Positions 4,193 through 11,979 of a stretch of DNA of 21,717 nt are shown one piece after another. Location: the NCBI GenBank assembly GCA_048882325.1, contig JBHLRS010000046.1, positions 4,068 to 25,784 of the forward strand. The letters run 5' to 3'. Source of the stretch: Candidatus Thorarchaeota archaeon. Lineage in GTDB: Archaea; Asgardarchaeota; Thorarchaeia; Thorarchaeales; Thorarchaeaceae. Numbering within the stretch: position 1 is the first letter of the stretch; each line of letters begins with the position of its first letter. A program made the position numbers and the translations under genes. The notes beneath the pieces are model-generated. The model was not told the origin of the DNA and did no database searches. It worked only from the letters and a program-made list of their open reading frames with translations.

Positions 4193-4220
4193 AACCAAAC
4201 GTGGAAAACGAGCGACTTGA

Positions 4221-4334
4221 TGGCGGCCATAGGTTCCCGGGTACACCTGAACTCGGCCGAACTCAGAAGTTAAGCCGGGAATCGTTTGGGCAGATGTGCG
4301 CTGCGCGAGCGCGTGACAGGGCCCAAAGCTGCCA
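4221..4334 (+). rRNA. rrf: 5S rRNA (unlinked to 16S/23S)
   Basis: Helix I TGGCGGC/GCTGCCA, CCATAG, helix II GGTTCCCGG/CCGGGAATC, conserved CCGAACTCAGAAGTTAAGC, helix TTTGGGC/GCCCAAA, about 114 nt. Followed by a pyrimidine tract; TATA-like CTTAAAA at about 4188-4194. Confidence 0.93.
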
Positions 4335-4423
4335 CATTTTCCTTCTTCTTGATTCATGATAATACGAAAATGTAGAGATAGAAGTCATTAAAAGAACAAC
4401 GAACGAGGTCGAGACTGATTTAG

Positions 4424-8584: not shown

Positions 8585-9835
8585 TTAGACCGGGCCAGAA
8601 TTTTCGTAGTCAGAGCTAGTTGGAAGTCTAATAATGAATTGAGTTTCAGGTGTGTCGGAGAGCTCTATTGTGCCCCCATGCGATTCGATAATCACTTTTG
8701 AAAGATAGAGACCGATTCCTTTGTCTTGATGTTCAGAGTCTGGCGCCTTCTTGAATAGAGTCTCTCTCTTTTCAGGTGGGATTCCTGGACCATTATCTGT
8801 AATTACAATGTGATAATGATGGTCGTCAACAGAGATATTGACATGTACAACTGGATAATCCCCAGCATGTTGAGAGGCGTTTCGGAAGATATTCGTCCAT
8901 ACCAATGGTAAGAGTCTACTTGGTATGATTTTCTCTCTTTCAGCCTCATTTGACCAAGAAACCTCAATACTTAGATTGCCGTGAGCTCTCTCACTTTCAA
9001 AAGCGACCTTCTGGATGTTCTCTATCAGGTTTACACTTGGTTGTTCAATGGCAAGTTTGAAGACATGAAGCAGTTTCTGCATTCTTACCCCCATATTCAG
9101 AGATTGATCAAGGTTTTCATCTACTTTCTCGGTATTCACAGAGAGAAGCAATTTGGACAGCTCTACAGAATTAATTATGGCCTGAAGATCATTTGATAGA
9201 TCATGTCTAAGAAGTCTGGTATAAATCTCAAGTTCTCTCTTTTGAGTTTCCAGCTCAGCAGATTGGTTTTTTACCTCAATCACGTACGAGTCTATCATTC
9301 GTGTGGCAAAAATGACTAGTGCAGATAGAATTACAATGGAAAGCAGATGGCTATCATATTCACTGAAAGGGATACTCCGAATGAAACTAACAAAAAAGAT
9401 CATAATTGACGATATAATTGTGGTTTGAATCAAGATTACTCTTTCATCAGCAAATAATGCTCCAGCACCTAAAGCAACAATAATCCAAGGCATTAATCGC
9501 GAAATATCTTGGGGAGCCCAATCTGTCACAGAGAACCAAATTACGATTGGTAAGAATGTAATCAATGAGAGTGTAATTACTAAAGTGATCTTATAGTAAT
9601 GGGTTCTAGACATCAGATAGATTGAGAATATCAATAGATTAACGACGAGTATTAGTGGTTCTATATTACTCAATAAGTCACCAAAAAGAATCGTCAGAGT
9701 AGCAAATGGGCTCACTGCTAGAAGAAATGCTGAGAGTTGACTAGCTAATTGACGATTTCTGTTTCCTGTTATTCCCGGGTCAGGTTCAACTAGAATATTG
9801 TATATCCTTTGCAATGTAGAATAATGAGTTCTCAT
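8585..9835 (-). CDS. Membrane-bound sensor histidine kinase
   Basis: About 6 TM segments, a coiled coil, H-box LRHDLSNDL, N-box NIFRNASQHA, G1 DNGPGIP, G2 GIGLYLSK. Start is ATG 9835 or TTG 9865; TATA-like TTTTAAAA near 9880. Confidence 0.9.
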   Translation of the reverse strand: MRTHYSTLQRIYNILVEPDPGITGNRNRQLASQLSAFLLAVSPFATLTILFGDLLSNIEPLILVVNLLIFSIYLMSRTHYYKITLVITLSLITFLPIVIWFSVTDWAPQDISRLMPWIIVALGAGALFADERVILIQTTIISSIMIFFVSFIRSIPFSEYDSHLLSIVILSALVIFATRMIDSYVIEVKNQSAELETQKRELEIYTRLLRHDLSNDLQAIINSVELSKLLLSVNTEKVDENLDQSLNMGVRMQKLLHVFKLAIEQPSVNLIENIQKVAFESERAHGNLSIEVSWSNEAEREKIIPSRLLPLVWTNIFRNASQHAGDYPVVHVNISVDDHHYHIVITDNGPGIPPEKRETLFKKAPDSEHQDKGIGLYLSKVIIESHGGTIELSDTPETQFIIRLPTSSDYENSGPV

Positions 9836-9932
9836 ACGCAAGAGGTCCGTAATTTTAGAAGGCAAGAAAGACTGGCATTTTTAAAATAAATTGGTCCAAA
9901 TCAAATGCCATAGAATTCCAAGTTAAGAAGGT

Positions 9933-10231
9933 GGTCGATGCCTGTATCCCTTCACACTAACTCCCAGAATCATAGCATCAGATATTGCATCTGGCTCCAC
10001 TGAGTTGTCTCGTGTCAGGTAGAGTGACATCGACCGGCCCGCCAATGTACGAAACCGGGGTGACCCGCTTTTCATCTAAAGGACAAACATCCCCATCAAG
10101 CGAGTCCGTTAGGGCTCGTCCTATTGGTGTTTGGCAGGCATTTGTTCAGGATGTGACCCGTCCTATGCGCAACACCTCATTGGCAAAGCCTCAGCGCGCC
10201 CTCGTGAACGGGACTTGATACTCCTGAACAA
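9933..10231 (-). ncRNA. Candidate multi-hairpin K-turn RNA (H/ACA-like)
   Basis: Four stem-loops whose G-U wobbles mostly require the minus strand. Three carry tandem GA/AG K-turn or K-loop motifs and are followed by ACA, AGA and ACA. No credible ORF here. Folded by eye. Confidence 0.6.
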
Positions 10232-10409
10232 GAGCGTCTTGATTTCTTATGTTATTAGGATTTTCACATGGCGCGATTCATGTCAGTTGGTCTGAGAGAG
10301 AGAAGCATCCAGACACAGACTATTTGGTGGTAGCGACATCTTCAAATACGCTGGGGAAACAGCCCCCATGTACAGCACAGGAGACCTAGAGTCATTCCGT
10401 GCTTTGCAA

Positions 10410-10535
10410 ATCATCATATCATCATATCACAGCGCCACGCGACCCCGGCTCTAGACCAATAACACGAGTCGGTGAGAGCACTGCGCAAAGTCTTAGGACG
10501 ATTATCATTCACAGGATTATCATCACGATTATCAT
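10410..10535 (+). repeat. Short repeats upstream of dnaG: ATCATCAT x2 + ATCAC (10410-10430) and GATTATCAT x3 (10500, 10515, 10527)
   Basis: Read directly from the sequence. Confidence 0.85.
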
Positions 10536-10686
10536 AGCATATGTTCGGGCACCGGTTAGAGTAGAATCTCACAGGTTTGATTCCGATCACAGTCTAGATG
10601 CATAGGCAGGTCCGCGACACAACGCAGGCAGAAACACCTCGGTTTAGAGGGCGAGGGTACGTGGTAGCATACCATAGGAGACGTGT

Positions 10687-11979
10687 ATAGAAATAGGAAC
10701 AGACTTCGACCAGAGTGCAGCCAAGTATGTCATCCGCGCACGAATTGAGATTGACGGCGTGGTTGATAAGCCGGATGTCGTTGGAGCGATATTTGGTCAG
10801 ACAGAGGGGCTGTTAGGAGAAGATCTCGATCTTAGAGAGCTTCAGCGTACTGGTCGTATAGGTAGAATTCAGATTGTGATAAGGTCAGAGGGCGGAAACA
10901 GTACTGGAGAGGTTGTAATTCCAGTTTCACTGAATAAAACTGCAACAGCTATTCTTGCAGCATCATTAGAAACAGTTGACCGTGTTGGTCCATGCACCGC
11001 TAAGGTGACCCTCGAAAAACTTGAGGACATTAGGGGTGCGAAAAGACGAAAAGTGGTCAGTAGAGCAATCAGCATCCTGAAAGGGTGGGAAGAGGACATC
11101 TCACCTGGCACAGATGAGATCAAGACTGCGGTCACCAAGGGAAGTAAGGTCTCTGTTTCAAAATATGGTCCTGATGGACTACCAGCAGGTCCAGGACTCA
11201 ATGGCAGTTCTGAGATTATAATCGTAGAAGGAAGAGCTGACGTAATCAACCTCATAAAATGTGGAATAACAAACACAGTTGCAGTTGAGGGAACTCACGT
11301 TCCCAAGAGCATTGTGGACCTCACAAAAAAGAGAGGCAAGAAAATAATTGCCTTTCTTGATGGAGACCGTGGCGGGGACCTCATCCTTAGGGAGCTGATG
11401 CAGGTGGCAAAAGTCCACTATATAGCACGGGCACCAGAAGGAAAAGAAGTGGAGGATCTCACACGAAGAGAAGTCACAAAAGCTCTCCAGACACAAATTC
11501 CAGCTGATCAAGCACTCGCTCTAGTGAAGGATAGGAAAGCAACTCCAAGCAAGAAGAAACGATCCACAAAGAAAACCACACGCACACGAAGGGGAGCCCA
11601 GCCAACGGATGATTTTGGCGAAGCCAAACCAATCGAGGACCGTCGAACCGCCAGACGAAGACCTGCAACAAGAAGGATACCTGTGACAGTGGATGAAGCC
11701 TATGTGGCAAAGATAGGAGACATCAAGGAGTCCTTCAAGGCACTCTTGTTTGGTAAGGACAAGAAAGTCATTGTAGAATGTGGGGTGGCTGAACTGGCGA
11801 AGACGCTCGAAAACCAAGAAGTGGTACCAACCATAGTTTTTGATGGTGTCATCACCCAAAGGCTTGTGGACATCGCCAGCAAAAAGAACACTCAGTTAAT
11901 GATTGGAGCTGCTGTTGCAGATATTGAGAACAAGCCAAGTAGCCTGAAGCTTGTGACCTTTGACGACCTTGGTCATTAG
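10687..11979 (+). CDS. dnaG: Archaeal DnaG (TOPRIM, exosome-associated); probable ATA start at 10687 or 10693
   Basis: AKYVIRARIEIDGVVDKPDVVGAIFGQTEGLLG, IIVEGRADV, AFLDGDRGG, FDGVITQRL. The conserved N-terminus extends upstream of GTG 10759; in-frame TAG at 10675; AGGAG at 10676-10680. Confidence 0.93.
   Translation: MEIGTDFDQSAAKYVIRARIEIDGVVDKPDVVGAIFGQTEGLLGEDLDLRELQRTGRIGRIQIVIRSEGGNSTGEVVIPVSLNKTATAILAASLETVDRVGPCTAKVTLEKLEDIRGAKRRKVVSRAISILKGWEEDISPGTDEIKTAVTKGSKVSVSKYGPDGLPAGPGLNGSSEIIIVEGRADVINLIKCGITNTVAVEGTHVPKSIVDLTKKRGKKIIAFLDGDRGGDLILRELMQVAKVHYIARAPEGKEVEDLTRREVTKALQTQIPADQALALVKDRKATPSKKKRSTKKTTRTRRGAQPTDDFGEAKPIEDRRTARRRPATRRIPVTVDEAYVAKIGDIKESFKALLFGKDKKVIVECGVAELAKTLENQEVVPTIVFDGVITQRLVDIASKKNTQLMIGAAVADIENKPSSLKLVTFDDLGH

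Follow-up and report, generated by a model that had tools for sequence, protein, structure and literature searches.

The closest described systems to the locus reported here are box H/ACA guide RNAs from other archaea. Their productive folds follow a 10/5/9 or 10/6/9 geometry (PMC4652768). In solved H/ACA RNPs, the distal G:A pair of the K-turn lies 9-10 nt from the pocket (PMC7075261). The top of the pocket, or the target uridine, is separated from the ANA box by 14-15 nt (PMC2377435); with an ACA box, values of 17 and 19 nt are tolerated as well (PMC2377435, PMC7075261). Pab40, Pf7, Pho40 and Afu4 (HgcG, RF00064), found in Archaeoglobus and the Thermococcales, combine three motifs in one molecule of about 230-300 nt, like the Asgard RNA described below; every motif has its own ANA box and its own K-turn or K-loop. 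Motif 1 of Pab40 guides position 2588 of P. abyssi, motif 2 of Pf7/Afu4 was assigned to position 2678 and motif 3 guides position 2016 in stem-loop 69; the sites of the E. coli enzymes RluE, RluC and RluB correspond to P. abyssi 2549, 2672 and 2697 (PMC2377435). In H. volcanii, the 5′ unit of sR-h45 (SL1) makes Psi2605, the third U of GGGUUUA, at 15 nt from its ACA, and the 3′ unit (SL2) makes both Psi1940 and Psi1942 (E. coli 1915 and 1917), leaving UNUN unpaired, at distances of 17 and 19 nt (PMC7075261). The eukaryotic snR191/U19 RNAs guide both conserved pseudouridines of helix 69 (PMC7075261), with a hairpin-hinge-hairpin-tail organization, one hairpin per uridine, and neither K-turn nor clamp helix.

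The window analyzed in this work (the whole stretch of 21,717 nt from a Candidatus Thorarchaeota archaeon) carries a real and conserved RNA gene, which very probably specifies a three-unit box H/ACA guide RNA for 23S rRNA pseudouridylation, the Asgard counterpart of Pab40/Pf7/Afu4. The three units, named A, B and C from 5′ to 3′, would be included in a transcript of about 305 nt read from the minus strand (approximately 10233-9926). The gene is located within an 890-bp gap devoid of ORFs, between a histidine kinase gene (8585-9865, minus strand), which lies 60 nt downstream of the RNA on the same strand, and dnaG (10759-11979, plus strand). In every Thorarchaeota locus compared, the RNA segment is found upstream of dnaG. 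The kinase gene is not a conserved neighbour and, since similarity to the relatives stops sharply at 9926-9930, it lies outside the conserved unit. The RNA segment itself is present in one copy per genome, with 79-94% identity in 22 of the 24 congeneric genomes.

A TATA-like box, CCUAAUAAC (10251-10259, minus strand), precedes the first nucleotide of the unit A clamp by about 20 nt. It is nearly invariant in the 44 loci, is followed by a spacer of fixed length and variable sequence, and is retained even in lineages that have lost the inner part of unit A. It is a putative archaeal promoter, from which the RNA gene would be transcribed on its own; given its distance from the unit A clamp, transcription would start near 10233. 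At the other end, the T-rich tail ACCUUCUUAACUU (9920-9932, minus strand) follows the last helix in all aligned loci and sequence identity is lost there; it is the likely place of termination.

The minus strand orientation put forward in the initial annotation is well founded. G-U pairs that are invariant or nearly so (for example, in 44 of 44 and in 40 of 44 sequences) would be C-A mismatches on the plus strand and therefore designate the minus strand as the RNA strand. Furthermore, the minus strand folds better (-116.4 kcal/mol, z = -3.15) than the plus strand (-104.3 kcal/mol, z = -2.1). A hand-curated structure of 80 pairs was evaluated on an alignment of 44 Thorarchaeota sequences. Covariation among the loci upstream of dnaG in relatives, a check suggested along with the initial annotation, is strong: 91.4% of the cells are paired, compared to 33-43% when the partners are slid by 1-3 columns, and 47 pairs change on both sides, a number reached by none of 500 shuffles. 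Every helix of units A and C covaries, and both hairpins have the shape drawn from the sequence alone (outer stem, inner stem and apical K-turn for A; outer stem and K-turn for C).

The middle arm had to be redrawn. It had been described as a hairpin AGGACGAGC/GUUUGUCCU with a K-loop CGGA...UGAUG, followed by AGAUGA, read as an ANANNA (H) box, and by a small hairpin CCGG.../...CCGG. The first of these hairpins is 69.5% paired, shows no double change and does no better than shuffles; AGAUGA is actually the bulged K-turn strand of the middle arm, inside CAGAUGAA; and the small hairpin does not covary and clashes with two helices that are 97-98% paired. The arm that takes their place is made of a 9-bp outer helix, a 5-bp stem, a stem of 7-9 bp, a K-turn and a small apical hairpin; its clamp, its stems and its small apical hairpin covary.

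The three arms share a common plan. Outermost is the clamp, of 9-10 bp; a linker that varies leads on the 5′ side to the lower stem, the internal loop comes next, and the upper stem ends in a K-turn, with the apical hairpin as its C-stem. The lower stem, the internal-loop pocket and the upper stem that characterize an H/ACA hairpin are therefore present in all three units. In each of them, the tandem GA of the K-turn and the U that ends the bulge are invariant or nearly so, and an ANA box lies directly 3′ of the lower stem, the clamp strand following at once. The position of ACA right before the 3′ strand of the outer stem, already noticed for A and C (10154-10152 and 9945-9943), thus extends to all three arms. 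The box is ACA in 36/36, 41/43 and 42/44 sequences for A, B and C, respectively, the remaining ones having AUA or AGA. The spacing between the GA of the K-turn and ACA is 22 nt in A (all 36 sequences having the unit), 23 nt in B (41/43) and 24 nt in C (42/44). A spacing kept this constant in three arms that are otherwise unrelated indicates that they share a protein complex. It should also be emphasized that a covarying clamp closes each unit, which puts ACA within an asymmetric internal loop instead of a free tail. These helices are present across the phylum. Only 2 nt (10141-10140) separate the clamp of A from that of B, and only 1 nt (10036) separates that of B from that of C. The lower stems of B and C are short (5 bp and 3 bp, the latter possibly extended by an invariant CAC/GUG).

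All three units show a two-part complementarity of the pocket to 23S rRNA, flanking a uridine that would lie at 15 nt from ACA for A, 14 nt for B (15 nt in other Asgard families) and both 17 and 19 nt for C. The targets were read from the rRNAs of congeneric genomes, the assembly of the window's own genome containing neither 16S nor 23S rRNA. The distances were counted directly on the sequences, and the E. coli numbering of the targets results from our own mapping.

Unit A (10142-10231, minus strand) is delimited by covariation in all its helices and by the spacing from GA to ACA. It consists of the clamp (10231-10222/10151-10142), a lower stem (10212-10206/10163-10157), the 5′ guide ACGAGG (10205-10200), the upper stem with its K-turn (10199-10169; GA 10192-10191, bulge AAU 10181-10179, GA 10178-10177), the 3′ guide GCAUA (10168-10164) and ACA (10154-10152). 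The K-turn reads CUGA / GGC-UUU-GCC / AAU-GA. The upper stem measures 9/10 nt and the 3′ guide 5 nt, the lower stem has 7 bp plus 2 nt, and 14 nt separate the upper stem from ACA. Unit A thus agrees with all the published geometry rules given above and matches the productive 10/5/9 fold (PMC4652768). Its predicted target in 23S rRNA, UGC-U-U-CCUCG, occurs once and is flanked by pairing with GCA and CGAGG, which leaves exactly two bases unpaired (the canonical UN) and places the target U at ACA + 15. The most likely target is thus U2496 (E. coli), in the peptidyl-transferase ring, mapped through the adjacent CCUCGAUGUCGG. The 3′ guide forms only 3 bp in the window's genus and 4-5 bp in others. 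In some species of this genus, the inner part of unit A has been lost and a short hairpin is left after the TATA box, indicating that this unit is dispensable. Helix 42 of 16S rRNA was also considered as a target of hairpin A and was rejected: Thorarchaeota 16S rRNA has ACCCGCGUGAAC there instead of the sequence assumed, and GUUC, which is part of the guide, is variable and takes part in pairing inside the RNA itself.

Unit B (10037-10139, minus strand), delimited by covariation and by its own spacing from GA to ACA, comprises the clamp (10139-10131/10045-10037), a lower stem (10119-10115/10053-10049), a 5′ guide with AACGG (10114-10107), the upper stem (10106-10098/10070-10062), the K-turn (GA 10097-10096, bulge GAU 10076-10074, GA 10073-10072), whose 5′ strand is UGA, the apical hairpin (10093-10080), the 3′ guide ACCCCGGU (10061-10054) and ACA (10048-10046), which the 3′ strand of the clamp follows at once. 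Its upper stem is 11-12 nt long, compared to the usual 9-10 nt, unless the two lowest pairs open, so that the K-turn distance is borderline. From the upper stem to ACA, there are 13 nt in the window's family and 14 nt in other Asgard families. In the window's family, U2585/U2586 in GGGUUUAG is flanked by two pairings, ACCC with GGGU and AACGG with CCGUU. In other Asgard families, the 3′ guide AACCCAG is a perfect 7-bp match to CUGGGUU, and GACGG or GAUGG pairs with CCGUC. One A of the 3′ guide is missing in the window's family, and the target there lies at ACA + 14; elsewhere, it lies at ACA + 15, on the third U (E. coli 2586). U2585/U2586 is therefore the most likely predicted target of unit B. 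A site located after the sarcin-ricin loop, GGUG-UA-UCCGUUG, was an early top match of this unit and was discarded, as it is absent from the 23S rRNA of a close relative.

Unit C (9933-10035, minus strand), recognized by covariation, by its spacing from GA to ACA and by guides antisense to helix 69, includes the clamp (10035-10026/9942-9933), the lower stem (10019-10017/9950-9948), a 5′ guide containing GAGAC (10016-10005), the upper stem (10004-10000/9967-9963), the K-turn (GA 9997-9996, bulge UAU 9974-9972, GA 9971-9970; UGGA / GC...GC / UAU-GA), the apical hairpin (9995-9975), a 3′ guide containing GUUAGU (9962-9951) and ACA (9945-9943). The upper stem measures 9 nt, followed by 17 nt to ACA; like that of unit A, it is within the published range. 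GUUAGU pairs with ACUAAC, which immediately precedes the uridine of the helix 69 loop corresponding to E. coli U1915, and GAGAC pairs with GUCUC, which is the 3′ strand of helix 69, UAUG(A) staying unpaired. The most likely predicted target is U1915, at ACA + 17, and U1917 in the same loop, at ACA + 19, is probably a second one. A helix GAC/GUU proposed by RNAalifold inside this unit is not kept outside the family, where C changes to G; its bases are now read as guide.

A two-part target scan with free pocket borders gave only matches at chance level. In a bounded scan, scores at least as high as the observed ones were obtained in 84, 26 and 21 of 100 shuffled-rRNA controls for A, B and C, respectively, and, with such a flexible model, the complementarity in a single genome is thus not significant. 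Therefore, the case for these targets rests on guide-target co-variation and on their identity with known sites. From one Asgard family to another, guides and predicted targets do vary in concert. In helix 69, the 3′ strand is GUCUC in the six genomes of the window's family that were checked and CUCUC in all seven from other families; the guide is GAGAC opposite GUCUC and GAGAG opposite CUCUC, with the exception of one genome of the window's family (G091), where GGGA keeps a wobble pairing. Across families, the partner of the unit C guide within the RNA stays G while the guide changes. In the peptidyl-transferase region, most members of the window's family have CCGUU and the guide AACGG (AAUGG in G091). 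The single member that keeps CCGUC (G083) has the guide GACGG, and other families have GACGG or GAUGG; the exception is G051, with AACGG opposite CCGUC. These comparisons were drawn up with crude patterns and the entries were checked against the sequences. The changes correspond to few events, and each co-variation may represent only one or two of them, but all fall exactly on the predicted pairs.

Two rRNA genes of relatives have unusual structures. In a genome of the same order (L139, G025:C23), the part of the 23S rRNA gene located just 5′ of UUAAGGUAGCC (helix 69 region) is replaced by an unrelated sequence, and in a congeneric genome (G014:C73:13812-16104), the 16S rRNA match is 2.3 kb long instead of 1.5 kb. 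In both cases, the rRNA gene looks as if it contained an intron or an insertion.

A covariance model built from units B and C retrieved full-length single-copy homologs in the 26 genomes of the family and also homologs in 12 other Asgard families. Unit A lies upstream in most of the non-Thorarchaeota homologs examined, with CGAGG and GCAAR. In a complete Asgard genome from another family (L121, G066:C1:1838640-1841850), the homologous RNA, also with three units, is on the same strand as the 23S rRNA gene and begins some 150 nt past the 3′ end of the latter, behind an A/T-rich spacer.

Units A, B and C and motifs 1, 2 and 3 of Pab40/Pf7/Afu4 have equivalent sites (2496, 2586 and helix 69) in the same order, the correspondence of 2588 with 2496 and of 2678 with 2586 relying on an offset of 92 nt in domain V, which we deduced from the Pab35 sites (PMC2377435). 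The unit A site was predicted ahead of this comparison and coincides with that of motif 1. The Asgard RNA differs from Pab40 in that a clamp of 9-10 bp closes each unit, leaving ACA in an internal loop; the lack of clamps in Pab40 is taken from the published descriptors, where ACA flanks helix H1. Unlike Pab40, it also has linkers of only 1-2 nt and a unit C with a large loop and 17/19 spacing. Units B and C likewise correspond to SL1 and SL2 of sR-h45, with which they share order, sites and distances (15 and 17/19, B being at 14 in the window's family). However, sR-h45 has only two units, with a 56-nt spacer between them that possibly forms a pseudoknot, and an H-box-like AUAGCU. The Asgard RNA has one unit more, a single nucleotide joins its units B and C, and clamps close the units.

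Despite this resemblance, HgcG (RF00064, gathering score 77 bits) gave no match at E ≤ 10, either in the region or anywhere else in the genome, and an Rfam search at E ≤ 10 over 9600-10900 gave none either. With the Rfam gathering thresholds, the window yields only a stand-alone 5S rRNA gene (4219-4337, plus strand, 66.5 bits). Neither RNase P RNA nor SRP RNA (RF00373, RF01857), the families that the initial annotation had set against its own reading, matches the window; in this genome, they are found on contigs C3 (164.6 bits) and C25, respectively. The genome also carries the genes encoding Cbf5 (431 bits) and Nop10 (69.5 bits). On contig C3 (141896-143245), the RNase P RNA gene (141896-142234, minus strand) is located 55 nt downstream of cbf5 (142289-143245, minus strand).

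Taken as a whole, the anatomy of the units, their spacing, their 23S rRNA targets and the presence of cbf5 and nop10 support the proposal, already made from the sequence alone, of a multi-hairpin H/ACA-like RNA with clamps enclosing ACA. The K-turn of each unit would bind L7Ae, while its lower stem and ACA box would be the binding site of Cbf5, Nop10 and Gar1. Both strands of the internal loop would pair with the 23S rRNA sequences that flank a uridine, and Cbf5 would isomerise this uridine to pseudouridine. The molecule is thus of a known kind, and what is new is the clamp helix around each hairpin. An ACA enclosed by a helix, where the PUA domain of Cbf5 would have to bind it, is absent from the published H/ACA descriptors consulted for comparison, and this speaks against the guide reading. 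The clamps may make up for the shortness of the lower stems in B and C, or they may stack on one another as a single scaffold. A further proposal is an Asgard-wide H/ACA architecture, in which stacked clamps would hold three Cbf5 modules for a coordinated action on nascent domains IV and V of 23S rRNA, or in which the clamps would act as a switch opening for the loading of Cbf5; we regard it as speculative and rather doubtful.

The best surviving alternative to a modification guide, although an improbable one, is that an H/ACA-type RNP binds the same regions of 23S rRNA as a folding or assembly chaperone and forms no pseudouridine. The eukaryotic snR30/U17 is an H/ACA-type chaperone of this sort. 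Units B and C leave 4-5 target bases unpaired, compared to the canonical two, the clamps and very short linkers suggest one rigid particle, and the proximity of the gene to the 23S rRNA gene in the complete Asgard genome mentioned above would also suit such a role. However, H. volcanii does form pseudouridines with the same atypical pairing and 17/19 spacing (PMC7075261), each of the three sites is in other archaea an H/ACA site, either experimentally modified or proposed (PMC2377435), and unit A is fully canonical.

Still less probable is a new class of L7Ae-bound structural RNA that would work without Cbf5, its ACA motifs and rRNA complementarity being coincidental. Such a class, the second option of the initial annotation, would account for the lack of Rfam match, for an ACA located in an internal loop rather than in a free tail and for a complementarity that is not significant by itself in one genome. 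It would leave unexplained why the ruler from GA to ACA is fixed in three otherwise unrelated arms, why the three targets are those of Pab40 motifs 1-3 in the same order and why guide and target co-vary, and it is not needed. A cis-acting leader of the histidine kinase gene (same strand) or of dnaG (other strand) has hardly any probability: the kinase ORF does begin 60 nt past the RNA, and the long gap preceding dnaG, in which the RNA is found, is conserved, but conservation stops at 9926, the kinase gene is not a conserved neighbour, the RNA is antisense to the direction of dnaG and other Asgard families show other contexts, such as the vicinity of 23S rRNA.

Asgard archaea are the closest archaeal relatives of eukaryotes. 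With the H/ACA guide reading, this work gives a predicted function to a conserved and unannotated non-coding gene that current Rfam models miss across these archaea. The trio of guided sites, in helix 69 and the peptidyl-transferase centre, would be common to Euryarchaeota and Asgard archaea, which suggests an old and stable guide RNA. Apart from its clamps, the RNA appears to be an ordinary member of a well-studied system; the helices enclosing the ACA boxes are a testable structural departure from the textbook H/ACA RNP.

Besides the RNA gene, conservation across Thorarchaeota also extends to the rest of the gap before dnaG (10260-10670). Its plus strand contains three copies of GATTATCAT, at about 10501-10545. 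The minus strand shows an invariant UAUUUGAAGNUGUCG at 10348-10334 and a run GUGAUAUGAUGAUAUGAUGAUUUGC at 10430-10406, followed by two small covarying hairpins. Consensus folding of this segment is weak on either strand (-20.7 versus -17.3 kcal/mol for its best part). It could contain regulatory DNA sites, a dnaG leader or another small RNA. Identity is still 0.8-0.9 in 10670-10760, upstream of the GTG at 10759 that was taken as the start of dnaG.
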